This document shows positions 26,893 through 39,214 of a DNA stretch of 64,000 nucleotides, one piece after another. Position 1 is the stretch's first letter. Each line of letters starts with the position of its first letter. The stretch lies in the IMG/VR virus record IMGVR_UViG_3300046474_000370, positions 37,111 to 101,110 of that record, one strand, 5' to 3'. Source of the DNA: a virus. The notes beneath the pieces were generated by a model. It was not told the DNA's origin, did not search any database, and saw only the letters and a list, made by a program, of their open reading frames with translations. The position numbers were made by a program, and so were the translations under genes.

Positions 26893-28515
26893 ATGAGCCA
26901 GCTAACCTTGCCCGACGATGTGCGCGCGGCGCTGCATGACGCGCCATTCGGGGCGATCTGTGACCTGTGGGAGCTGATCGAGCGCCGCTATGGCGACGCC
27001 GGCCGCGCCTGGCTGGGGCGGCACGACCGCTATTACCTGCTGACCCGGCTGCTGCACCGGCTCGATGCGGTGCATCCGTGGCTGTACGCGCGCTGCCGCG
27101 AGGTCGAGGAGGCCCCGGACGGCTACCTCGACCTGTGGGCGCGGGAGCACTACAAATCGACGGTGATCACGTTCGCCGGCATCATCCAGACGCTGTTGCG
27201 GGACCCCGAGACCACGGTCGGCATCTTTTCCCATACCAAGCCGGTGGCGCGCAAGTTCCTCTTGCAGATCAAGCAGGAGCTGGAGGCGAACCGCGAGCTG
27301 CAGGCGCTCTACCCGGAGGTGCTGTACGCCGACCCGCGCAACGAAGCGCCCAAGTGGAGCGAGGAAAAGGGCATCACGGTGCGGCGCCGCAGCAACCCCA
27401 AGGAAGCTTCGGTCGAGGCGCATGGGCTGGTCGACGGCCAGCCGACCGGCGCCCACTTCTTGTTGCGCGTGTATGACGACGTGGTGACGCGCGAGAGCGT
27501 GAGCACACCCGAGCAGGTGGCCAAGACCACCTCGGCATGGGAGCTGTCGGACAACCTGGGCGCGCGTGGCGAGGACGGCCAGGCGCGCAGCTGGCATGTG
27601 GGAACCCGCTACAGCTTCGCCGACACCTACCAGGCCATCATGGACCGGGGCGCGCTCAAGGTGCGGCTGTACCCAGCGACCGAGAACGGGATGCCGGACG
27701 GGACCCCGGTGCTGCTGTCGCCCGCGGCGTGGGCCGACCGCAAGCTCAAGCAGGGGCCGGCCACGATCGCCTGCCAGATGCTCCAGAACCCCGCCGCCGG
27801 CAACGAGGCGATGTTCAAGAAGGAGTGGCTGAGCTTCATCGACATCCGGCCCGCCACCCTGAACGTGTACATCATGGTGGACCCGGCGCACAGCCGCAAG
27901 AAGGGCTCGGACAACACGGCGATGGCGGTGGTCGGGGTGGACGCCGGCGGCAATCGCTACCTGCTGGACGGCTACCGCCACAAGATGGGCTTACGGGAAC
28001 GCTGGGAGGCCCTGCGCGGGCTGCGCAAGGTGTGGATGGCCCAGCCGGGCGTGCAGATGGTGCAAGTTGGCTACGAACGCTATGGGATGCAGGCCGATCT
28101 GGAGTATTTCGAGGAACAGATGCAGCGCGACAAGGAGTCCTTCGAGATCATCGAGCTGAACTGGACCTCGGATGGCGCCCAGGCCAAGGACGACCGCGTG
28201 CAGCGCCTGCAGCCCGATTTCATGAGCCACCGTTTCTATCTGGCCGCCGTGGTGCAGGGCGAGACCGCGAACCAGCGCCGCATCCGCGAGCAGGGCCAGC
28301 CGTTCCGCATCTTCAAGCCGGTCATGCGGCGTGACCACGAGGGCAACATGTATTCGCTGAACAAGGGGTTCTTGGAAGAATTCCTGACCTACCCGTTCAG
28401 CGCCAAGAAGGACCTGATCGACGCCGTGAGCCGGCTGTACGACATGGAGCCGGTGCCACCGATCCTGATCGACGAGCGGACGCTGGAGCCCGAGACCTAT
28501 GCGGACGGGGTGTGA
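26893..28515 (+). CDS. terL: Terminase large subunit
   Basis: Deviant Walker A REHYKST, Walker B YDDVV, GTRY, nuclease VDPA...SDNTAM, DLIDAVS. Confidence 0.92.
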   Translation: MSQLTLPDDVRAALHDAPFGAICDLWELIERRYGDAGRAWLGRHDRYYLLTRLLHRLDAVHPWLYARCREVEEAPDGYLDLWAREHYKSTVITFAGIIQTLLRDPETTVGIFSHTKPVARKFLLQIKQELEANRELQALYPEVLYADPRNEAPKWSEEKGITVRRRSNPKEASVEAHGLVDGQPTGAHFLLRVYDDVVTRESVSTPEQVAKTTSAWELSDNLGARGEDGQARSWHVGTRYSFADTYQAIMDRGALKVRLYPATENGMPDGTPVLLSPAAWADRKLKQGPATIACQMLQNPAAGNEAMFKKEWLSFIDIRPATLNVYIMVDPAHSRKKGSDNTAMAVVGVDAGGNRYLLDGYRHKMGLRERWEALRGLRKVWMAQPGVQMVQVGYERYGMQADLEYFEEQMQRDKESFEIIELNWTSDGAQAKDDRVQRLQPDFMSHRFYLAAVVQGETANQRRIREQGQPFRIFKPVMRRDHEGNMYSLNKGFLEEFLTYPFSAKKDLIDAVSRLYDMEPVPPILIDERTLEPETYADGV

Positions 28516-28516
28516 C

Positions 28517-28819
28517 ATGGGGTGGAAGCAGGTCGTCAACGCCAAGACGCGGGCCGCCTTCGGGCTCACGCTGTACCGCATGGAGCGCATCCGCGGCAAC
28601 CAGCAGTACGGGATCACGCTGGCGGTCCATCCGGCAGAACTGGCGCAGGGGCGCGGGCGGGTCGCCCGCAAGCTGCACCAGGCCCGCCACCAGCTGCGCA
28701 GGATGGGCGAGATCACCGCCGCGCGCCTGGCCCACTACCCAACAGACGACGAGGACGAACATGCCACGTTTCCCGGTGAGAACCAGCACTACCGAGGCGA
28801 GCCACATGGCCAAGATTGA
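28517..28819 (+). CDS. Phage hypothetical protein
   Basis: Directly follows terL. Confidence 0.6.
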   Translation: MGWKQVVNAKTRAAFGLTLYRMERIRGNQQYGITLAVHPAELAQGRGRVARKLHQARHQLRRMGEITAARLAHYPTDDEDEHATFPGENQHYRGEPHGQD

Positions 28820-28952
28820 CGCCAGCCACTACGACAACAACGACGACGGCACGTTCGCGCAGCAGTCCATCATCGTCGCCGGCGCCGTCGCGGCGCTGGT
28901 GGTGGGGTTGGTGGTGCTGGGGTTCTGGATCGTGGTCGCCAGCGTCGGTTGA
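28806..28952 (+). CDS. Small membrane protein
   Basis: C-terminal TM helix. Confidence 0.5.
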   Translation: MAKIDASHYDNNDDGTFAQQSIIVAGAVAALVVGLVVLGFWIVVASVG

Positions 28953-28966
28953 ACGAGGAGAAAGCG

Positions 28967-29194
28967 ATGAACAAGATGCGCATCCCGCCAGTGCCGGCCG
29001 CCACCGGCTACGACGCAGTGGCGCCGGTGGCCCCGGCACCACGCACCCGCCGCCCGCCGCCGCCGCAGCCGCGCGCCGACACGGGCGGCCCCGGCATGGT
29101 CAGCACCGGCCGTGGTGCAGTGGCGCACAAGCCGCACAACCCGGACAACCACCTGGGCGCGATGCCGACTGCCGCGCCGCGGGGCAAGAAATGA
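28967..29194 (+). CDS. Small Pro-rich hypothetical protein
   Basis: SD GAGGAG. Confidence 0.55.
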   Translation: MNKMRIPPVPAATGYDAVAPVAPAPRTRRPPPPQPRADTGGPGMVSTGRGAVAHKPHNPDNHLGAMPTAAPRGKK

Positions 29195-29373
29195 CGATGG
29201 ACCCGCGCACGATCCCAAGCTTCACGACCCGCCTGTGGTCGGAGGAAGTGGGGCGCGCCGAGGCCAACGAGCCGCCGATGCCCCAGCTGGCCTACCGTTT
29301 CTCGAACGGTCGCGCGTTCGCCGCCATCGCGTACGACCCGCCGGTGCCGCCGCCGGTCGAGGACACGCCGTGA
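29191..29373 (+). CDS. Small hypothetical protein
   Basis: Coupled; YRFSNGRAF. Confidence 0.6.
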   Translation: MTMDPRTIPSFTTRLWSEEVGRAEANEPPMPQLAYRFSNGRAFAAIAYDPPVPPPVEDTP

Positions 29374-29516
29374 TCGAGCTGGCGCGCGCCGAGTACGAGA
29401 CGCTGCCGGAGGATATCCAGGCGCTCTACACCTACACCCAATGGATGTGGCTGTCTGGCGAGGAAAAGGCCCGCGTGGTGCAGGCCGAGACGGAACCGGA
29501 GCAGTACGACGGTTAG
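29370..29516 (+). CDS. Small hypothetical protein
   Basis: GTG start coupled to the upstream stop. Confidence 0.6.
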   Translation: MIELARAEYETLPEDIQALYTYTQWMWLSGEEKARVVQAETEPEQYDG

Positions 29517-29526
29517 GAGGCGGGCG

Positions 29527-29599
29527 AAAAAAAGCCCGACGCTTGCACGCCGGGCAGGAGTAGTCCAAAAGCCCAGGGCAGGGCTGTTCTTTGCAGAAC
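29527..29599 (-). ncRNA. Candidate ~73-nt sRNA
   Basis: TTGCAT-17-GATACT promoter (29634-29606), GNRA hairpin, second hairpin, CUCCU seed, intrinsic terminator with T7. Confidence 0.6.
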
Positions 29600-29635
29600 A
29601 GGGCCAGTATCGCCCGATCCTTGGCAGGATGCAAT

Positions 29636-29860
29636 TCATTTCGTGTGCGGGTCCGATGGTGCCCGCTTCGGCCCGTGGAACGCCAGCCGGCAGTGCGGGC
29701 AGACGTAGATCACGAGGTTATGGAACGGCTCCGCCTCGACCGCGTCGGGATGGCCCCACTGGTAGTTGTTCTTGTCGGCCATGTCCATCGGGCTGTCAGC
29801 GGTGCAGTAGCGACGCGGCAGGGCGCTGGGGACGTACACAAGGAACGGGGCGGCGCTCAT
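29636..29860 (-). CDS. Small Zn-finger-like protein
   Basis: RYCT...WGHPDA...CPHC. Confidence 0.65.
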   Translation of the reverse strand: MSAAPFLVYVPSALPRRYCTADSPMDMADKNNYQWGHPDAVEAEPFHNLVIYVCPHCRLAFHGPKRAPSDPHTK

Positions 29861-30099
29861 GGCTGGCGGTCGCTGACGACGGTGATGTGCTTGCCCTTGT
29901 AGCTGGCCAGCTCGGGCAGGCGCGACCGAATCAGCAGGTCTTGGTACTCGCTGCGGGTCAGGAAGATCATGGTGCAGTCGGGATCGAGCGCGGCGACGGC
30001 GCGGTTGGCCGCCTCGACGCCATCGAGTTCGCGCCGGAATAGGTGGTCGAGCTGGCGGCGCGCCTCTTTCTCGTCCTTTTTCTGTCTGCGGCTGGTCAT
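29857..30099 (-). CDS. Hypothetical protein
   Basis: 4-bp overlaps with both neighbours. Confidence 0.6.
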   Translation of the reverse strand: MTSRRQKKDEKEARRQLDHLFRRELDGVEAANRAVAALDPDCTMIFLTRSEYQDLLIRSRLPELASYKGKHITVVSDRQP

Positions 30100-30455
30100 T
30101 TGGTGGTTCTCCCCGGTTCAATACAGTTGTCCATAATCCAGTGTACGCACAGCAGGTAGCCTTCCTCGCCGAATACCGCGCGCACCGCGCGGCGCCAGTT
30201 GGCCCGGTCCATGCGGTTGCGCACGAGCTTGAGTTCGTCGCCGATCCGCGTGAGCTGGGCCTGATGCGCCCCGATGCGCACGCCGGCCTCGTCGGCTTCG
30301 CGGGTATAGCACCCGTTGCGAAAGGCGTTCAGCGCCGCGATCTCGTCGATCAGCGCGTGGCGCCGCATCACCAGTTCGATTTCGGCCTCGCTATCGGGCA
30401 TACCGTGCAGGCGCTCCCAGAATAGCGCGTCGTCGGCGGCGGCGCGGTGGCTCAT
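30096..30455 (-). CDS. Hypothetical protein
   Basis: 4-bp overlaps with both neighbours. Confidence 0.65.
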   Translation of the reverse strand: MSHRAAADDALFWERLHGMPDSEAEIELVMRRHALIDEIAALNAFRNGCYTREADEAGVRIGAHQAQLTRIGDELKLVRNRMDRANWRRAVRAVFGEEGYLLCVHWIMDNCIEPGRTTK

Positions 30456-30643
30456 GGCGCCCCCTGCTGATCGCGCATGTGCGAGACGACCAGCGGAATG
30501 CGCCGGCGCATGGCGGCCCGGTAACGCAGCACGGCGCGGGCGCGGGCGCTACGGACCCACTTGAGCAGCGCGGGCTTGCCGCGCCGCACCGCCTTGCCTG
30601 CGGCGTGCCCGCAATAACGGCCCTCGCGCTGATTACGACTCAT
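30452..30643 (-). CDS. MSRNxREGxY-family micro-protein 4 (63 aa)
   Basis: Starts MSRNQREGRY. Confidence 0.65.
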   Translation of the reverse strand: MSRNQREGRYCGHAAGKAVRRGKPALLKWVRSARARAVLRYRAAMRRRIPLVVSHMRDQQGAP

Positions 30644-30854
30644 CCGGGCCCACCACGTATCGCCACCGGAGCGCCTTGGCGATGTAGCGCACGCGCGGGC
30701 GGCGCACCGGCAGCGGCTCGCCCGCGCGGCGTGATGCCTCGGCCCAGGCCACACAGTTATCAGGCTGGCCGATGGCGAACAGTGGCCGTGCGCTGCGCAG
30801 GTGGCGGCCCTGACAGGTGCCGATGTAGCGCCCTTCGCGCTGGTTGCGACTCAT
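30633..30854 (-). CDS. MSRNxREGxY-family micro-protein 3 (73 aa)
   Basis: Starts MSRNQREGRY. Confidence 0.65.
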   Translation of the reverse strand: MSRNQREGRYIGTCQGRHLRSARPLFAIGQPDNCVAWAEASRRAGEPLPVRRPRVRYIAKALRWRYVVGPDES

Positions 30855-31078
30855 GGCCCGCTCCCGTGGTCCTCGGGGTGGCAGTAGTCGCTTGGCGCCA
30901 CCTGTTCCTCGGGCAGCACCCACGACGGCGCGCCGCAGAACGCACAGCGAAACGGCGCCACCCCGGTATAGAGCAGCGCAACAGTCAGCGCGGCGACCTG
31001 CTGCTGGACCGCCGCGGGCTGGCACAGCGGCCAGCAGCAGCAGCGCGCGCCGTCCACGCCGCAGCCACACGCGCTCAT
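30851..31078 (-). CDS. Cys-rich small protein
   Basis: CGC, CCC, CAFC, YCH; coupled on both sides. Confidence 0.55.
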   Translation of the reverse strand: MSACGCGVDGARCCCWPLCQPAAVQQQVAALTVALLYTGVAPFRCAFCGAPSWVLPEEQVAPSDYCHPEDHGSGP

Positions 31079-31266
31079 GGTGCGCTCCCGATCAGCCGCA
31101 ACGACTGCCGCGCGGCGGCGCGCCGCAGCCGGTCGTACTCGCGCAATGTGAGGAACATGCCGTTGCCGTAGGGTTGGCGCCGATGGCGGCGCGGCGCGTC
31201 CGGGTTGGTGCCCCAACGGAACTGGCCCGCATACCAGCCCTCGCGTGCGTTGCGGCTCACGGTCAT
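31075..31266 (-). CDS. MSRNxREGxY-family micro-protein 2
   Basis: (MT)VSRNAREGWY. Confidence 0.6.
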   Translation of the reverse strand: MTVSRNAREGWYAGQFRWGTNPDAPRRHRRQPYGNGMFLTLREYDRLRRAAARQSLRLIGSAP

Positions 31267-31496
31267 CAGTACCCCATGTCCAATGCCTGCGCCTGATCGG
31301 CCAGCGCCTGCATGGCCGCCCGCACTGCCTTGCTCAGGTAGCGCGGGCGGCGCACCGGCAGCGGCTCGCCCGCGCGACGCGACGCCTCGGCCCAGGCCAC
31401 GCCGTAGTCGTACCGGATGCGCAGCCAGCGCGGGCCGCGCGTGTGCCTGCCCTGAAAGCGGCCGAGGTAGTAGCCCTCGCGCGCGTTACGGCTCAT
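31266..31496 (-). CDS. MSRNxREGxY-family micro-protein 1 (76 aa)
   Basis: Starts MSRNAREGYY. Confidence 0.65.
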   Translation of the reverse strand: MSRNAREGYYLGRFQGRHTRGPRWLRIRYDYGVAWAEASRRAGEPLPVRRPRYLSKAVRAAMQALADQAQALDMGY

Positions 31497-31723
31497 GGCC
31501 ACACCCGCACGAACGCAGCGCCGCGCACGTAGGTGCGGGCCGACGCGTCGTACACCGCGTTGCCGGGCGCCAGCGCCAGGTAGTTTTGGATGTCGCGCGA
31601 CGCCTGCGGCATCGACAGCCCGAAGTAATCGACAATCGCGCTGCGGTTGACGGTGCCGTAGTGGGCCAGCAGGAATTCGATGAATTGAAAGCGTACCAGC
31701 ACGTTTGGCTTGATGTCGTTCAT
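31493..31723 (-). CDS. Stand-alone CapW/BrxR-like winged-HTH protein
   Basis: RFQFIEFLLAHYGTVNRSAIVDYFGLSMPQASRDIQNYLALAPGNAVYDASARTY resembles the N-terminal wHTH of WYL repressors. Confidence 0.8.
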   Translation of the reverse strand: MNDIKPNVLVRFQFIEFLLAHYGTVNRSAIVDYFGLSMPQASRDIQNYLALAPGNAVYDASARTYVRGAAFVRVWP

Positions 31724-32175
31724 GGTGCCTCCAACAGGCCAACCATGCGTTCCAGCAGGGCCTCGATCTGGCCGAACGCGAACAGCTCGTCAGGACCGCT
31801 GCGGAACGCCTTGTCGCCGTCCAGGTACAGGCCATAGCCACGGTCTGGATGCACCTGCACGCACAGCGGCCCCACGTCGAGCCAGGTCGATTGCAGGTCG
31901 TGTTCGGCCGCGTCCACCAGCACCCGGTGCCCCAGCGTGCGCAGCGCGTGGATCAGGGGCTGGGCCTTGCCCAAGGTCGCGCTTTGGCTCATGCCGCCTC
32001 CAGTGGTCAGCGGCCAGTGGTACGCGCAGGCCGGACGCGCCGGGTCGCCGCCGTTCCAGAGGAAGGACGCGTACGCCTGCCAGGCCGGGTTCGGCACCGT
32101 GCCGCTGGCCGCGTGGCGATAGCAGCCCGTGCGCAGCGGGCAAGTGGTGCTGTTGCACATGGTGATGTCAGGCAC
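31720..32175 (-). CDS. Hypothetical protein (Cys-rich module fused to a second module)
   Basis: DITMC...CPLRTGCYR; internal GGAGG-ATG. Confidence 0.6.
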   Translation of the reverse strand: MPDITMCNSTTCPLRTGCYRHAASGTVPNPAWQAYASFLWNGGDPARPACAYHWPLTTGGGMSQSATLGKAQPLIHALRTLGHRVLVDAAEHDLQSTWLDVGPLCVQVHPDRGYGLYLDGDKAFRSGPDELFAFGQIEALLERMVGLLEAP

Positions 32176-32395
32176 GGCCCACCTCGGCCCGGTGCACGAT
32201 GTCGTCGCGGCCGCACCAGATCAGGATCGTGCCGCGCACGCTGTCGCTGTTGGGGCCGGTCGGTTGCCCGTCCAGTTCCAGAAAGCGGTAGGGCACGCCG
32301 TCGCCGATGATCGCGTTGACGTTGTCGTGATGCTGGCCCACCAGCGCGGCGGCGATGGCGGCAAGCTTGCTTTTCCTGGTTGGTCGGTTGCCCAT
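32168..32395 (-). CDS. Hypothetical protein
   Basis: Operon packing. Confidence 0.55.
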   Translation of the reverse strand: MGNRPTRKSKLAAIAAALVGQHHDNVNAIIGDGVPYRFLELDGQPTGPNSDSVRGTILIWCGRDDIVHRAEVGRA

Positions 32396-32412
32396 GTTGG
32401 TGGATCTTCTTT

Positions 32413-32631
32413 CTATGCTGGGGAGTCGTTGTGTGGCGCGACCTCGGTCCAGGCCGCCATGTGCAGCACCTTGCCCTGCGCATCCTTGCAGTACGAGTAC
32501 ATGCCGTCGATGTGGCCGAACCAGTAGACGGTGTCGGCGCCGGCCTCGACCGCGGGCGCGCCGGGCGGGATGTGCACGGTGTCGTCAAGCACCGTGAACA
32601 GGCTGTTGCGGGGGAGTTCGTAGAGTTTCAT
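32413..32631 (-). CDS. Phage hypothetical protein
   Basis: MKLYELPRNS...HIDGMYSYC. Confidence 0.7.
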   Translation of the reverse strand: MKLYELPRNSLFTVLDDTVHIPPGAPAVEAGADTVYWFGHIDGMYSYCKDAQGKVLHMAAWTEVAPHNDSPA

Positions 32632-33113
32632 GGGGCAGGGTTCCAGTCGTGGCACTTGGCGCAGTAGCGCTGTGCGATGTCGTTGTGGTTGTACGAAGTC
32701 AGGCCGCAGCGCGGGCAGGTGATCGACGGATAGCGATGCGTCACCGCGAGAAATGCCGGCGGCAGCACGACGTTCGCGGGGCTGTGCGCGAAGAACGGCG
32801 CGATCTGTTCCGGGCGATAGCCCGCCAGCCCGCAGCCGATCGGGGTGACGCGGAACACCAGCTCGGGGTGGGCCTGGGCGAAGTCGAGAAAGCGCAGCAC
32901 GTAGTAGTGGACCCACTCCAGCGGCAGAGTGCGCAGGCGCGCGTCCTTGGTCGGGATCGCGTAGCTGCGCCCCTGCAAGCCCTCGCCCTGGCCGTAGATC
33001 GCGCCGTGCCAGTGCTGGGCCGCGAGCGCGGCGCCCTTGCCGTGGCGGCCGGCCAGGTTGGACCCGAACACGAAGATGCGGTTGCTCAGGGGCGGGAACG
33101 GGACGTCGTTCAT
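32628..33113 (-). CDS. A1S_2505-like phage non-structural protein with C-terminal Zn finger
   Basis: IFVFGSNLAGRHGKGAA...GQGEGLQGRSYAIPTK...VTPIGCGLAGY; CPRC...CAKCH. Confidence 0.8.
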   Translation of the reverse strand: MNDVPFPPLSNRIFVFGSNLAGRHGKGAALAAQHWHGAIYGQGEGLQGRSYAIPTKDARLRTLPLEWVHYYVLRFLDFAQAHPELVFRVTPIGCGLAGYRPEQIAPFFAHSPANVVLPPAFLAVTHRYPSITCPRCGLTSYNHNDIAQRYCAKCHDWNPAP

Positions 33114-33289
33114 CGCCGGCGCTCCTTCACCTGGTGATACATTGTGTACACCTGCCCCCGGTACAGCCAGAGGCGGACGCAAATGCGCTTGGCGCGGTCG
33201 AAGTCGTAGCCGGCAGCGCAGAACGCACTGGCGCGCCCGTTCGGTGCGTTGGCGCGCCGCGCCAGCCATGGATTGGCGGGCACAATCAT
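33110..33289 (-). CDS. 59-aa hypothetical protein
   Basis: Hand-translated MIVPANPW...; 4-bp overlaps on both sides. Confidence 0.55.
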   Translation of the reverse strand: MIVPANPWLARRANAPNGRASAFCAAGYDFDRAKRICVRLWLYRGQVYTMYHQVKERRR

Positions 33290-33426
33290 GCATCCCGCCA
33301 GATCACCACCAGCCCGATCAGGACCAGCAGCACGCCGTGGCCGGTGTGCGGGGTGACCCCGACGACAAAGGCGCCGAAAGCGCAGACGGCGACGCTGGCG
33401 ATGGCACGGGCGGTGGGGGCGGTCAT
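33286..33426 (-). CDS. Small two-TM membrane protein
   Basis: Coupled, hydrophobic. Confidence 0.5.
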   Translation of the reverse strand: MTAPTARAIASVAVCAFGAFVVGVTPHTGHGVLLVLIGLVVIWRDA

Positions 33427-33671
33427 CGCTTGGCCACCTGCTCCAGCCAGTGCGCCGCCGCCAGCCAGGCGTCGAACAGGTGCCAGTCGGTCTCGAGCAC
33501 GGACTTCAGCCAGGCATCGAACGCCGGGCGGCTGGGGGCCAGCACGCCGGGCGTGGCGCCGCGCGCAGCCAACGACGCCGACCAGGTCATCCAGCCGGTC
33601 GTCACCGGACCGCTGCGCGGCTGTGCCAGCCAAGCCTCGAATAGTGCGCGTTCGCTGTTGTTGTTGGCCAT
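33423..33671 (-). CDS. Hypothetical protein
   Basis: Repeated F(E/D)AWL motif. Confidence 0.6.
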   Translation of the reverse strand: MANNNSERALFEAWLAQPRSGPVTTGWMTWSASLAARGATPGVLAPSRPAFDAWLKSVLETDWHLFDAWLAAAHWLEQVAKR

Positions 33672-33675
33672 AGTG

Positions 33676-33978
33676 TTACCAGCTCCCGTAGTCGGTCAGG
33701 TCGATGGTCGCCTCCAGCGGCGTGCCCTGGCAGAACGTGGCCCGCACCACGACGCCCAGCCCGGTCGGGGTGAACGCGTAGGTCAAGCCGCCGCCAATCG
33801 CGCCCAGGTACGGCTGGGCCTTGCCGTCGCGCACGGTGACGTGGGGGGCCAGTTCGGGGTCGCGCAACTGCGCCGCCGCCAGCGCCGTGGTGTGCTGGTC
33901 CAGCCAGGCGTCCAGCTTGACCGACTGGTCGTAGTCGAGGCCGAACATCACGGTCATCCGCCGCCGGATTTCGCTCAT
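33676..33978 (-). CDS. Phage hypothetical protein
   Basis: GAIGGGLTYAFTPTGLG...DLTDYGSW. Confidence 0.75.
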   Translation of the reverse strand: MSEIRRRMTVMFGLDYDQSVKLDAWLDQHTTALAAAQLRDPELAPHVTVRDGKAQPYLGAIGGGLTYAFTPTGLGVVVRATFCQGTPLEATIDLTDYGSW

Positions 33979-34562
33979 GGGGTCTCCTGCCGCGCACTGG
34001 CCGGAATGCCGGAATGGGCCACCAGGGCGTCGATGATGCGCGTAATGGCGTCGAACGCGGCTTCGGCTTCCGGGCCGGACGCGTAGTGCAGGTGGATCGT
34101 CGCGCCCAGCGCGCCCGGATCGGTGGCCAGCGTGCCGCTTTCGTAGCCGGTGGCGATGGCGGCACGCTGCGCGTCCGTCAGCAGCGGCGGTGCCAGCCAA
34201 GCGGCGATCACCTGGTCGAGCAGCTTGTCCTGATCAACCACCTGGCCTTGTCCGGCGGCCCAGCGGAACGCCGACAACAGATCATGCACGGACAGCAGGA
34301 AGCGCGTGTCCAGCGGATCGGGCGCTTCGTGCATCTGCGCGTAATGGTTGCCGATGAAGGCGATGGCCTCGGCCGCCGTCTGCGGATAGGTCATGCCCGC
34401 AGGGGGCCGCTTCACCAGCGACCATGTGCATCGGGTACAGCGGACTGCCGCGTCGTCCTCGACAACATCCGACTTGCAGCTCGGACAGAAGTCGCCACAG
34501 CGGCAAGGGCGCAGCTCGCCGCAGGCGCAAAAACCGTGGTGGCTGACGGCATGGGGATTCAC
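33975..34562 (-). CDS. Multi-module hypothetical protein with Zn ribbon
   Basis: CACG...CPSC...CTRC. Confidence 0.6.
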   Translation of the reverse strand: MNPHAVSHHGFCACGELRPCRCGDFCPSCKSDVVEDDAAVRCTRCTWSLVKRPPAGMTYPQTAAEAIAFIGNHYAQMHEAPDPLDTRFLLSVHDLLSAFRWAAGQGQVVDQDKLLDQVIAAWLAPPLLTDAQRAAIATGYESGTLATDPGALGATIHLHYASGPEAEAAFDAITRIIDALVAHSGIPASARQETP

Positions 34563-35200
34563 AGCAAGCCCTCCTTGCGCAGCGTGACCACCAAGTCCAC
34601 GGCGTAGATCGACGCCAGGTGCGCCACGTCGGGGTTGTCGAAATAGCGCGCCGCGATGGCGTCGGCGTGCAGCCCGATGGCGTCGATCAGCGCATCGGAG
34701 GCGCGCTTGGCCGCGCGCTGGCGGGCCACATCAGATGCACCGGCGCCGATCTCGCCCTCGAACAGTGGTGTGACGGCTTCTAGAGCCAGCATCCTTGTGC
34801 TCCACTCTTTCGAGTAGCCGGCGTGACTGGCCACGGCATCGAGCAGCTTTTGCGGATGGGCGCGCGCCGCCGCCTCGGCCACGGCCAGCAGCGCCTCGGT
34901 CGCCGACTCGCTAGGCAAATCGTCTTGCAGTGGATCGTGCGCGGGGTCCAGCGCGGGGGCCGTGCGCAAGTTGACCGGCACCGGCAGGCCGAGCCGGTAA
35001 TGGATCAGAAGGGCCTTGGCGCGGTCGATCATGGCGCTGGCCATCGCCACATTGTCGCGCTCCAGCACTTCCTGCGCGTCCGACAGCAGGCTCAGCACAA
35101 CCATGCCGGGACCGGCCAGGCGCGCGATGGGGTCGCGCTCGCAGTGGGCGATCAGGGCGGCCAGGGCGGGATCGGGGGGATATTCGGTGGGATCGGTCAT
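34559..35200 (-). CDS. Hypothetical protein
   Basis: Operon packing. Confidence 0.65.
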   Translation of the reverse strand: MTDPTEYPPDPALAALIAHCERDPIARLAGPGMVVLSLLSDAQEVLERDNVAMASAMIDRAKALLIHYRLGLPVPVNLRTAPALDPAHDPLQDDLPSESATEALLAVAEAAARAHPQKLLDAVASHAGYSKEWSTRMLALEAVTPLFEGEIGAGASDVARQRAAKRASDALIDAIGLHADAIAARYFDNPDVAHLASIYAVDLVVTLRKEGLL

Positions 35201-35201
35201 G

Positions 35202-35444
35202 TCAGTGGCACTCCGGGCCGTGGCCTTGCAGGGCCAGGTAGTTGCGCATGGCAGCGGTCAGCACCGCCTCGTCGTTGTTAAAGCGGGCGCGCAGCTTGGC
35301 CAGCATGTTGGCGCGCGTGAGCCGGTTGAATTGCATCACCGCGCTGCCCACGGCGGTCAGCTCGAACAGGTCGGCGGCATCGTCGAACGTGAGCCGCTGG
35401 CCGCCGCGCAGCATGGCCTCGATCTCGTCAAGACGGGCGCTCAT
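35202..35444 (-). CDS. Hypothetical protein
   Basis: Coupled start. Confidence 0.6.
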   Translation of the reverse strand: MSARLDEIEAMLRGGQRLTFDDAADLFELTAVGSAVMQFNRLTRANMLAKLRARFNNDEAVLTAAMRNYLALQGHGPECH

Positions 35445-35671
35445 TTGAGAATCCAGACGGCGCGCCCGACGAACGCCATTTCGGCCCACTTGGCACGGTA
35501 GTGGGCCTGTCCGCCCGGCTGGCCGTGTTCGCCCAGCGCCTGCACATAGCCTTGCGCGCCCCACGGCTTCGGTTGGGTGACGGTCATCATGCAGCCGGCG
35601 AACATCGGATTGCCGACGGACGGGGCGAGCTGCACCACGTCGCCCGGTTCCAATGGGTCTTGTTCACTCAT
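35441..35671 (-). CDS. Small SH3-like phage protein, first gene of the antisense operon
   Basis: GDVVQL...VTQPKPWGAQGYV. Confidence 0.7.
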   Translation of the reverse strand: MSEQDPLEPGDVVQLAPSVGNPMFAGCMMTVTQPKPWGAQGYVQALGEHGQPGGQAHYRAKWAEMAFVGRAVWILK

Positions 35672-35827
35672 GAGATTTCCACGTACAGGCTTGTTCGTTG
35701 GTAACTACGAGTTGCAATGATACACGCAGGAAAGGCGTTTGTGCGCAAAAGCAAGCCGCGCCAACCGCCCACGCAAGCCCGTGAGGGTGCCGGCCCCATA
35801 AACCGACCCCATCCACGGAGAAACGCC

Positions 35828-36148
35828 ATGCATGCCCATTCCACCGCGCCTAAACACCAGCACACGCACCTGGCCGTGCAAGAGGCCTTGACCCCGCAGG
35901 AGCGCCCGCTGCAAGTGGACGATTCGCTGGAGCAGCTGCAGCGCCAGGTCGAGTTCACCGTCGAGACCGTGCGCGCGCTGATGCGCCGACTGGCGCCGGT
36001 GAGCGTCGACACGCTGGCCGAGGGCGCGGCGCTCGAGGCCCGCCCGTGCAGCAAGGTGCGGCTGGCCGAGCAGATCGACCGTTGCACCGATGACCTGGTG
36101 GTGCTGACCGCCGAAGTACAGGTGGCGGTCAGGGCGCTGCAACTGTAG
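35828..36148 (+). CDS. Hypothetical coiled-coil protein
   Basis: SD GGAG; followed by a terminator. Confidence 0.65.
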   Translation: MHAHSTAPKHQHTHLAVQEALTPQERPLQVDDSLEQLQRQVEFTVETVRALMRRLAPVSVDTLAEGAALEARPCSKVRLAEQIDRCTDDLVVLTAEVQVAVRALQL

Positions 36149-36169
36149 GTGGCGCGCACCTGAAACCCC

Positions 36170-36194
36170 AACCCCGCCGCGTGCGGGGTTTTTT
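36170..36194 (+). terminator. Intrinsic terminator
   Basis: AACCCCGC-CGCGT-GCGGGGTT plus TTTT. Confidence 0.75.
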
Positions 36195-36209
36195 GTTGCA
36201 AGGATACCC

Positions 36210-36566
36210 ATGAGCCAACTGCTGACCGGCCTCGATGACAGCGCGGTGTCCACCGGCGCCAATGACATGCTGCTGGCCAAGGAGATCGCCGACGCCCTGA
36301 ACAGCCACTATCCGGGCCACCTGTGGGCGGTCAACGTGGACGGCCCGAACGGGCTGGCCAACATCCGCGACCTGATGCTGTCGGGCCAGATGGGCTATGT
36401 GCTCAAGCTGGGCAACATGTTCAGCGCCTCCGATTTCCGCCGCGATGTGATCCGCGCCGGCGGCGAGATCCTGGAACGCTTCCGCATGGCGCGCGGGCGC
36501 TTCGATGAGGGCCAGTACGGCGGCCTGCAGACCAACTTTGCCGGCGACTTCGTCTTCGAGCGATGA
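36210..36566 (+). CDS. Conserved-looking phage protein upstream of the portal
   Basis: HYPGHLWAV...AGGEILERF; coupled to the portal. Confidence 0.75.
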   Translation: MSQLLTGLDDSAVSTGANDMLLAKEIADALNSHYPGHLWAVNVDGPNGLANIRDLMLSGQMGYVLKLGNMFSASDFRRDVIRAGGEILERFRMARGRFDEGQYGGLQTNFAGDFVFER

Positions 36567-39214
36567 GCGAGCCGGTGCAAGCGACCCAAGTGCCCTGGGG
36601 CGGTCCCGATACCGACTGGCTCGGGCTGGCGCGCGACGCCTACCAGGCCTCGTCCAGCTATTTCGACGCCAACGTGCGCAGCCAGATCGAGGCCGACTTG
36701 CGCCAGTCGCAGGGGCAGCACCCGATCGGCTCGAAGTACCTGGCCGACAAGACCCGCTCGCGCCTGTTCCGGCCCAAGACGCGCGCCATGATCCGCAAGA
36801 ACGAGGCGGCCTGCGCCGAGGCGTTCTTTACCACCAACGATGTGGTCGCGATCAAGGCCGAGAACGACAACGACCCGCAGCAGCAGGCCAGCGCGGCGGT
36901 GATCCGCGAGCTGTTGCAGTACCGCCTGACCAAGACCATCCCGTGGTATCTGACGCTGGTCGGCGCGTTCCAGGACGCCCAGACGGTCGGCATAGTGGCG
37001 TCCTACCAGTATTGGGAATACAACCAGGTCAAGGGGATCGACAAGCCGTGCGTGCGCCTGCTGCCGATCGAGAACCTGCGCTTCGACCCGGCCGCCTCAT
37101 GGACCGACCCGGTGGGCACCTCGCCGTATCTGATCGAGCTGATCCCGATGTACGTGGGCCAGGTCAAGGCGCGCATGCGCAACCCGGACCCGAAAACCGG
37201 GGCGCCGCGCTGGCACGAGCTGCCCGACTCGGTGATCCTGACCGCCACCACCACCTACGGCGACACCATCCGCATGCAGCGCGAAGGCCAGCGCACCGAT
37301 TCCAAGTACCAGCAGCAGGCCAACAGCAATTTCAACGTGGTATGGGTCCACAAGGTCATCCTTGAGGTCGACGAGGTCGATTACGTCTACTACACGCTCG
37401 GCTGCGACCACATGCTGAGCGACCCGGTGCCGCTCAGGGAGGTTTATTTCCACGGCCGCCGCCCGTACGTGGTGGGCACCTGCGTGGTCGAGACCCACAA
37501 GATTTACCCGGCCTCGCTGCCGCACCTGACCCACGATGTGCAGGCCGAGATCAACGAGGTGGCCAACCAGCGCATCGACAACGTCAAGCTGGCCCTGAAC
37601 AAGCGCTATTTTGCGCGCCGCAACAAGCAGGTCGACCTGCGCTCGGTGACCCGCAACGTGCCCGGCTCGGTGACCCTGATGCAGGACGTGGACGACGTCA
37701 AGGTGGTCGAGTTCAACGATGTGACCGGCTCCAGCTACAAGGAGCAGGAGGTGCTGAACCTCGACTTCGACGACCTGGCCGGCACCTTCTCGGGCAGTTC
37801 GGTGCAGTCGAACCGCAAGCTGAACGAGACCGTGGGCGGGATGAACCTGCTCAATACGACCGCCAACCAGGTCGCCAACTACCAGCTGCGCACCTTCGTC
37901 GAGACCTGGGTCGAGCCGGTGCTGCGCCAGCTGGTGCTGCTGGAGCAGAACTACGAGACCGACGAGGTGGTGCTGGCCCTGTGCGGGCAGGCCGCCAACC
38001 TGCAGCGCTTTGGCTTCGACGCCGTCACCGACGAGATGCTGATGGCGGAAACCACGCTGTCGGTGAACGTCGGCATGGGCCAGACCAACCCGGCCGAGCA
38101 GGGCAAGCAGTTCATCAACGGCATGACCGCGCTCAAGGAACTGCTGGGCGACGGCACGCTGGTCAAGATGGGCGTCGAGGTGGGCGAGGTGATCAAGGAG
38201 ATCTTCGGCAAGCTCGGCTACAAGGACGGCAGCCGCTTCTTCTCGCAGGACGCGAAGGACGATCCGGCGCGCCAGCAGATGCAGGCCACGATCGACCAGT
38301 TGCAGCAGGCGCTGCAGGCCAAGATGCCGCCGGAACTGCTGGCCGCCACCGTGCGCAAGCTCGATGCCGAGACCAAGTCGACCCAGGCCGAGGCGGTCAA
38401 GCGCGGCGTCGAGTCGTCGTTCAGCGCGATGCAGGGCGCCGAGGTGATCGCCGCGGTGCCGGGGGTGGCGCCGATCGCCGACGAGCTGATGCGCTCGGCC
38501 GGCTACACCGAACCGCAGCCGGCTGGCATCGACCCGAACTTCCCGCAGCCGGGCGGCGCGGCGCCGGGGCTGGGCATCGAGCCGGTGAAGAACCGCCGCA
38601 CCGGGATCGGCTTCCTGCCGGGCGACGCCAGCAGCACGGTGTACCCGCCCAATCCGACGCCGCCGCCGACGCCGGGCATCGGGGTGCGCCAGGGCATCCA
38701 GACCCAGCGCCCGGACAGCATCGCGCAGGCGGCCTTCGCTGACGGCGGGCTGGTGGGCGACGACGACGACGACGACGACAGCGCCCAGGCGGGCGCCGGC
38801 GCGCCGGGCTACGCGGCGGGCGCGAATGGCTACGGCGGGAACCGCAGCCCGGTGCATGACCTGATGGCGCAGAGCATGTTCAAGCTGGCCAACGGCGGCT
38901 TGATCCAGGGACCGGGCAGCGGCACCAGCGATTCGATCGCGGCCGCCGCCGGCGGGTTGCCGCTGGCCGTTTCCAACGGCGAGTACCGGATTCCGGCGGC
39001 GGTGGTGGCCGCGCTCGGGCACGACTTCTTCGAGGCGCTGGTGGCGCAGTTCCATGCGCCGGTCAGCACCGACGGCGCACCGCCGCCAGCGCAGCCGGGC
39101 CAGCCGCCGCTGCCGCTCGAGAACGGCGACTTCATCGTGCCGGCCGATGTGGTGCAGGCGCTTGGGCATGACTTCTTTGACAAGTTAATCGAGAGCTACG
39201 GGGGGGCGGCATGA
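36563..39214 (+). CDS. Portal protein (podovirus/P22-like) with C-terminal extension
   Basis: SRLFRPKTR, RFDPAA, RPYVVG, QAEINEVANQRIDN, ETVGGM; size and position between terL and scaffold. Confidence 0.85.
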   Translation: MSEPVQATQVPWGGPDTDWLGLARDAYQASSSYFDANVRSQIEADLRQSQGQHPIGSKYLADKTRSRLFRPKTRAMIRKNEAACAEAFFTTNDVVAIKAENDNDPQQQASAAVIRELLQYRLTKTIPWYLTLVGAFQDAQTVGIVASYQYWEYNQVKGIDKPCVRLLPIENLRFDPAASWTDPVGTSPYLIELIPMYVGQVKARMRNPDPKTGAPRWHELPDSVILTATTTYGDTIRMQREGQRTDSKYQQQANSNFNVVWVHKVILEVDEVDYVYYTLGCDHMLSDPVPLREVYFHGRRPYVVGTCVVETHKIYPASLPHLTHDVQAEINEVANQRIDNVKLALNKRYFARRNKQVDLRSVTRNVPGSVTLMQDVDDVKVVEFNDVTGSSYKEQEVLNLDFDDLAGTFSGSSVQSNRKLNETVGGMNLLNTTANQVANYQLRTFVETWVEPVLRQLVLLEQNYETDEVVLALCGQAANLQRFGFDAVTDEMLMAETTLSVNVGMGQTNPAEQGKQFINGMTALKELLGDGTLVKMGVEVGEVIKEIFGKLGYKDGSRFFSQDAKDDPARQQMQATIDQLQQALQAKMPPELLAATVRKLDAETKSTQAEAVKRGVESSFSAMQGAEVIAAVPGVAPIADELMRSAGYTEPQPAGIDPNFPQPGGAAPGLGIEPVKNRRTGIGFLPGDASSTVYPPNPTPPPTPGIGVRQGIQTQRPDSIAQAAFADGGLVGDDDDDDDSAQAGAGAPGYAAGANGYGGNRSPVHDLMAQSMFKLANGGLIQGPGSGTSDSIAAAAGGLPLAVSNGEYRIPAAVVAALGHDFFEALVAQFHAPVSTDGAPPPAQPGQPPLPLENGDFIVPADVVQALGHDFFDKLIESYGGAA

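Follow-up and report, generated by a model that had tools for sequence, protein, structure and literature searches.

The internal proteins of phage T4 (IPI, IPII, IPIII and their polymorphic replacements) are small, mostly basic and otherwise unrelated proteins that carry a short constant peptide, the capsid targeting sequence (CTS), and the content of their gene arrays varies among related phages. The tag is strictly N-terminal on the precursor, and the prohead protease cleaves after a Leu/Ile-x-Glu site at its end. Anti-CRISPR operons (Acr-Aca) combine small fast-turnover genes, whose known products are mostly acidic and have no common head, with a small winged-helix gene, to which they are sometimes fused. 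Arginine-rich nucleic-acid-binding peptides (ARMs), such as those of lambda N, P22 N and BIV Tat, are short, strongly basic and autonomous, and the BIV Tat peptide binds as a beta-hairpin. Here we describe an array of four small phage genes that starts each protein with the same segment of about 20 residues, which we call the head (consensus S-R-N-x-R-E-G-x-Y-x-G-[KRH]-x-x-G-[RK]-H-x-R). The array lies in a stretch of 64,000 nucleotides (the window), bases 37111-101110 of the 101,110-base IMG/VR virus record IMGVR_UViG_3300046474_000370. The record is rated complete, has rhizosphere metagenomes as its source and a GC content of 68%.

Like the T4 internal proteins, the head proteins are small, mostly basic and unrelated beyond the constant segment, and related phages differ in their arrays. 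However, the head is longer, is predicted to fold, is not limited to the N-terminus, occurs across differing portal types, lacks a Leu/Ile-x-Glu protease site and shows no sequence similarity to the T4 proteins. As in Acr-Aca operons, small genes share an operon with a small helix-turn-helix (HTH)-like gene, a synteny kept in relatives, and versions fused to HTH or ribbon-helix-helix (RHH) domains exist in related phages; the common head and the basic character set the locus apart from known Acr proteins. The likeness to ARMs is by analogy only, and the head, unlike them, has invariant Ser, Asn, Glu, Tyr and Gly residues. Several family members start with an RHH-like domain (weak matches), as RHH-type antitoxins and regulators do, but in these the head and tail replace the usual part after the RHH domain, and the four genes of the window have no RHH-like domain.

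The operon consists of the following features (tail subfamilies are described below; aa, amino acids; GC3, GC content at third codon positions).

31493-31723, minus strand: winged-helix-like gene directly upstream of the array, 76 aa, its stop overlapping the start of gene 1 (ATGA)
31266-31496, minus strand: P0001, head-bearing gene 1, subfamily A, 76 aa, GC3 0.91
31075-31266, minus strand: P0002, head-bearing gene 2, subfamily B, 63 aa from ATG (alternative start GTG at 31260, 61 aa)
30851-31078, minus strand: P0003, Cys-rich gene without the head, 75 aa, between head copies 2 and 3
30633-30854, minus strand: P0004, head-bearing gene 3, subfamily A, 73 aa, GC3 0.82
30452-30643, minus strand: P0005, head-bearing gene 4, subfamily E, 63 aa
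29857-30455, minus strand: two further coupled genes ending the operon, 119 and 80 aa, ATGA overlap with gene 4, GC3 0.84 and 0.88
31467-31493, 31231-31257, 30825-30851 and 30614-30640, minus strand: DNA for the invariant part of the head, copies 1-4, from the pattern search (direct-repeat family D1)

A degenerate DNA pattern for S-R-N-x-R-E-G-x-Y has four matches in the window, where 100 shuffles gave an expectation of 0.00, and these are the only copies in the whole 101-kb record. P0001, P0002, P0004 and P0005 begin with S-R-N-x-R-E-G-x-Y-x-G after 1-3 residues. All junctions, from the upstream 76-aa gene to the two genes past P0005, are ATGA overlaps, except for a TGATG overlap between P0001 and P0002. 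As each start overlaps the preceding stop, the genes of the array are considered translationally coupled. GC3 is 0.81-0.91 in the claimed frames, similar to the other genes of the phage, compared with 0.64-0.81 in the competing frames. Judged by their sequence, the four open reading frames (ORFs) are real genes of the expressed type.

An earlier note on this DNA had described four coupled, Arg-rich ORFs of 61-76 aa with a shared start, a Cys-rich ORF in their middle and a CapW-like winged-HTH gene directly upstream. We find all four on the minus strand with overlaps at every junction, and the Cys-rich ORF sits where it was placed. For the second gene, the ATG overlapping the P0001 stop is the more likely start, which adds Met-Thr-Val before the head; short Met-Thr leaders are frequent before the head in relatives. 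The winged-helix-like gene is in the proposed position, and homologues 43-68% identical are found in 16 fetched loci (about 11 contigs), mostly directly upstream of head genes. However, the only library support for the CapW-like label is weak, a match to the N-terminal part of a WYL-protein model (PADLOC, E 0.021), and neither Pfam nor NCBIfam gives a match for this gene.

The head is found far beyond this phage. The pattern search of IMG/VR returned 87 stretches with 91 distinct ORFs, from phages with a GC content of 0.38-0.68. Positions left free by the pattern are conserved too: position 4 is K/Q/A, 12 is K/R/H (64/91), 15 is Gly (52/91), 16 is R/K, 17 is His and 19 is Arg (58/91), which gives a module of about 20 residues. 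The 91 ORFs use all six Arg codons, all four Gly codons and both codons each of Glu, Asn and Tyr at the invariant positions, which places the constraint on the peptide and not on the DNA. The same was claimed earlier from the window, where the differences among the four heads, which have 72-79% identity across 29 nucleotides (nt), are synonymous. In diverged orthologue pairs the ratio of non-synonymous to synonymous substitution rates (dN/dS) is 0.13-0.61.

A profile of the 91 ORFs, compared with 1.84 billion cluster representatives, matches 226 proteins at E<=1e-3. Ten of these clusters were looked up, and all ten are metagenomic "hypothetical proteins" with 1-4 members each. For the four window proteins and the 91 relatives no family reached threshold in Pfam, PHROGs, NCBIfam or PADLOC, in line with the earlier failure to recognise a family. 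Among the 50,697 GenBank phage records there was no match to the region (blastn), to P0001 or to a low-GC member (both tblastn); a profile search of the PDB and the ESM Atlas gave nothing usable, and a full-text literature search for the head motif found no match. Head-bearing genes are a widespread, so far undescribed and unannotated phage protein family.

These searches also bear on the idea that the four ORFs are decaying local duplicates or otherwise non-functional, their shared start reflecting recent ancestry or a DNA-level element. The earlier note had named such decay, or absence of the motif elsewhere, as fatal to its proposal. The two type-A copies do have a near-identical tract of 65 nt in common, but 226 clusters keep the motif while using every synonymous codon, dN/dS is below 1, and the nearest relatives of each window copy are genes of other phages rather than of this one. 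The idea is refuted, and we give it practically no weight.

No part of unannotated viral sequence is larger than that made up by small phage genes, and a handle common to many of them is one of the few features through which they can be studied jointly. What began as four odd genes in the window is now a defined family: it has a head of 20 residues and more than 200 clusters, its tails form at least four subfamilies, it includes several domain fusions, and three cultured strains carry it in prophages. These three are all Oxalobacteraceae (Undibacterium crateris B2R-29, U. baiyunense BYS107W and Pseudoduganella flava CGMCC 1.10685), and they are the only prophages with the motif in 185,579 species genomes. 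The remaining pattern matches in this set are due to chance; those identified sit in SSB-like and purD-like ORFs.

Most phages have a single copy. Among 50 head-bearing records, 32 have one match, nine have two, five have three, three (including this phage) have four and one has five. Only 10 of 34 complete head-bearing genomes have a portal of the SU10 type, and the genomes range from 30 to 292 kb, so several phage lineages carry the head. This argues for a target that is not tied to one virion type.

The head behaves as a module. In the 149 new matches listed, it lies within the first 15 residues in 112 cases (proteins of 42-150 aa) and further in for 31, where it starts 22-168 residues into the protein. 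For some of these 31 the start may have been called wrongly. At least 15 clusters have the head behind upstream domains that recur in separate clusters. These are RHH-like, HTH-like, HicB-N-like by appearance, a domain of about 100 residues without assigned function (four clusters) or a Cys-x-x-Cys N-terminus. The RHH-like assignment comes from weak matches in four members to RHH_10, HicB, TacA1, NikA-like, MobA and RelB-like models, all below the curated cut-offs, and a search of 40 fused forms in the family libraries added nothing beyond such sub-threshold RHH matches. The N-termini of P0012 and P0028 look HicB-N-like (COG4226-like) by eye only, with no match in Pfam, NCBIfam or PDB sequences, so that no library supports this assignment. 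Two ORFs of probably about 150 aa (L005 870-1955 and L007 238-1326, plus strand) end in a minimal head of 26-27 residues with nothing after it, so the head can be a bare C-terminal appendage. No head form longer than 204 aa was found in the search, which is weak evidence.

The proposal of a constant peptide with variable tails is thus borne out on very different tails and far outside this phage, but the head is not the strictly N-terminal docking or leader tag that was first suggested. This position is also relevant for a capsid-targeting or packaging signal of the T4 CTS type, which would bring small basic proteins into the capsid with the DNA. Such a role would suit proteins that are small, basic and variable and open with a short constant peptide, and also the location of the array inside a block of small minus-strand genes (29857-35564) between the terminase and portal genes.

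26893-28515, plus strand: large terminase, flanking the block
36563-39214, plus strand: SU10-type portal, flanking the block

However, the block lies on the strand opposite to the structural genes, the head is internal or C-terminal in the clusters just described, phages of differing portal types share it, and most have one copy only. Furthermore, where the T4 protease site has Leu/Ile, the head has an invariant Asn, three residues ahead of its invariant Glu. A capsid-targeting role is highly improbable.

The head has a mean charge of +4.3 and the tails a median of +4. The tails are mostly Arg/Lys-rich, and 27 of 211 have a net charge of zero or below; at least four Cys are found in 5 of 214. 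The Arg-richness claimed earlier is thus partly an effect of composition. The leader of a ribosomally synthesised and post-translationally modified peptide (RiPP), with a conserved leader and a variable core, is a less likely reading: the core is not rich in modifiable residues, no neighbouring family is common across lineages, and the Pfam tallies of 140 neighbouring ORFs contain no RiPP enzyme.

The tails fall into subfamilies A (with an insertion variant, A'), B, E and F, and many singletons. A and A' have a conserved Ala-Trp helix and an Arg-Pro-Arg-Tyr end, while E has a conserved Asp-Gln-Gln-Gly-Ala C-terminus, and P0005 aligns with 21 relatives of this subfamily. The B tail of P0002 recurs in L005, L017, L080 and P0058, and the orthologues of P0001 in other phage contigs are 54-72% identical to it. 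The order in the window is A, B, A, E, each gene being closer to genes of other phages than to its own neighbours, and related high-GC phages combine the subfamilies differently (A'-F-E, A'-F, E-A'-other, A-B). By these sequence comparisons the A, B and E genes of the window are three old subfamilies with orthologues elsewhere, and the notion of a locally diversifying family does not fit them, nor the prevalence of single copies.

Two other small genes of the same strand are linked to the head proteins by fusion. One is the Cys-rich P0003, which matches PHROG 33726 (function not assigned) with an E-value of 2.2e-7; in another phage, the subfamily-A head protein P0032 has a C-terminus that matches the C-terminal half of P0003 (E 7e-14). 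The other lies further upstream and has no family match.

33423-33671, minus strand: Trp-rich gene of the same block, 82 aa, with repeated Phe-Asp/Glu-Ala-Trp-Leu units

In P0011, from another phage, a homologue of this 82-aa protein is fused behind a subfamily-A head (BLASTP E 3e-18), and P0028 has the same extension. Because they are fused to one another in other phages, the head proteins, the Cys-rich protein and the 82-aa Trp-rich protein may act together as a unit.

To examine the structure of the head, P0001 was modelled with AlphaFold2 from an alignment of 41 subfamily-A rows, and P0005 from 22 subfamily-E rows. The P0001 model has a predicted local distance difference test score (pLDDT) of 87 and consists of a helix (3-7), two strands (9-14 and 17-21) and two further helices (31-42 and 56-73). 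In the P0005 model the head elements (3-6, 10-14 and 17-20) match those of P0001, followed by a helix at 33-46. The head is thus predicted to fold as a helical turn and a beta-hairpin in two subfamilies.

The top Foldseek rows were GH24 phage lysozymes (T4 lysozyme), with a TM-score of 0.26 and a root mean square deviation of 15 Å, and there is no match to Pfam Phage_lysozyme. We rejected this resemblance because it consists only of a local Glu-Gly-Tyr-Tyr ... Gly-His string with different spacing; neither the catalytic Glu, Asp and Thr in their lysozyme arrangement nor the two-lobed fold is present. An HNH or beta-beta-alpha-metal nuclease was dropped as all of subfamily E has Ala in place of the His, and a Tat or Sec signal as there is no hydrophobic stretch.

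According to our preferred reading, which we hold tentatively, the head would be a basic binding module with nucleic acid as its most likely target; a regulatory or host-takeover role is inferred with the same reserve. Its basic composition, the Zn-ribbon-like tails and the link to DNA-binding domains and to an operon led by a winged-HTH gene make nucleic acid the most likely target in our judgement. A single target is suggested by the near-invariance of the head in phages that differ widely in composition and also in virion type. The head is an autonomous and portable module, usually followed by a helix, that starts proteins of about 40-150 aa with unrelated, mostly basic tails; in a minority it is placed after RHH-like, HTH-like or other small domains. 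It would bind one target common to many hosts, DNA or RNA, and the tails and the fused domains would make a second contact or confer the specificity. In this phage clade, A, B and E would be co-expressed from one coupled operon behind the small winged-helix gene, and their products would probably act with the Cys-rich and the 82-aa Trp-rich proteins.

Several observations weigh against a nucleic-acid target. The invariant Glu and the eight near-invariant residues show more specificity than a generic basic nucleic-acid arm would, and a precise protein interface fits them equally well. The neutral or acidic tails (27/211) do not fit, and no conserved RNA or DNA site turned up, although none was searched for. 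The RHH and HTH fusions could equally mark the head as a partner-binding or turnover element of regulators. Finally, the type-E model is of low confidence (pLDDT 64), and neither model resembles a known fold (Foldseek against the PDB, E>1; best Z of 2.3 in a wide VIA-align search).

The same residues also speak for the main, though less likely, alternative, in which the head is a docking peptide for one highly conserved host protein hub (RNA polymerase, ribosome, replication factor or protease adaptor), the tails are effectors, and the whole is a modular host-takeover or anti-defence toolkit with an Aca-like winged-HTH protein. Eight residues, Glu, Tyr and two Gly among them, are nearly invariant in phages with a GC content of 38-68% and fit docking at least as well as nucleic-acid binding. 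The tails are heterogeneous (basic, acidic or Zn-ribbon-like), a small HTH gene leads the array and HTH- or RHH-fused forms exist, as in acr-aca loci. In other phages the head genes lie among typical accessory genes (Acb1, DHFR, glutaredoxin, HNH, integrases and lysins). However, all-against-all clustering and Pfam tallies of 140 flanking ORFs identified no neighbour conserved across lineages and no partner, the family is strongly basic overall, unlike most known protein-mimic inhibitors, and a PADLOC scan gives no link to any defence system. In its widest form, this idea makes the head a universal address label: hundreds of small phage effectors with nothing else in common, as well as some phage regulators, would dock through it onto a single conserved bacterial machine. 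The result would be a modular takeover or anti-defence system across many unrelated lineages, several payloads of which are brought together in this clade. This version is rather doubtful.

A turnover or regulatory tag, that is, a degron or a chaperone handle giving a common lifetime or timing to unrelated small proteins, would also explain a head that works at any position and on unrelated partners. These include antitoxin-like RHH domains, which are typically labile. However, a folded hairpin of 20 residues with many invariant positions, as predicted here, is far more elaborate than known bacterial degrons. In addition, the tails of each subfamily are conserved themselves and co-vary with the head region, and we consider such a tag highly unlikely. 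Together with the capsid-targeting tag and the RiPP leader, it ranks as less likely than nucleic-acid binding or docking. For the nucleic-acid module, as for any target of the head, a single experiment that identified the target would give the whole family its first function, and also a compact, portable binding peptide.

Within the array, the two type-A genes share one repeat.

31341-31405 (gene 1) and 30693-30757 (gene 3), minus strand: near-identical block of 65 nt, repeat family D2, 92% identity

The block includes 60 nt that code for 20 identical residues with three silent changes, as had been noticed before. P0001 and P0004 are 61% identical overall. In these two genes the head codons have a far higher density of silent changes than the 65-nt tract, and for this reason the tract is probably the result of a recent gene conversion between two type-A copies. 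Unitigs from two independent rhizosphere runs stop exactly at both copies of the repeat (30699-30722 and 31347-31370). The same phage sequence, without differences, is also present in a second study, and the contigs of three rhizosphere runs that were compared are identical and contain no informative variation.

Two ORFs of other phages have unusual head arrangements. P0058 (98 aa) is subfamily-B-like and has an internal tandem duplication of nearly its full length, head included. A chimeric small ORF in L010 (2333-2521, plus strand) consists of a short leader and the first 12 residues of the head, followed by what appears to be the C-terminal end of an A1S_2505-type domain. The window has a protein of this type in the same minus-strand block.

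32628-33293, minus strand: A1S_2505-family phage non-structural protein, NCBIfam E 1.6e-44, with a C-terminal Cys-x-x-Cys ... Cys-x-x-Cys extension

Illegitimate recombination at a head is a possible origin of the chimeric ORF. Of the shuffling by recombination that the earlier note proposed, what can be pointed to is the probable conversion tract, this chimera and the differing arrays, and nothing beyond these.

The two genes that end the operon (119 and 80 aa) have no match in Pfam, PHROGs, PADLOC or NCBIfam. The gap between the terminase and portal genes (28515-36563) is about 8 kb long and consists mostly of some 15 small genes on the opposite strand without family matches. Downstream of the operon, the minus-strand block is closed by a putative terminator.

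29534-29555, minus strand: terminator-like hairpin with a 9-bp stem, seven G-C pairs and a T run

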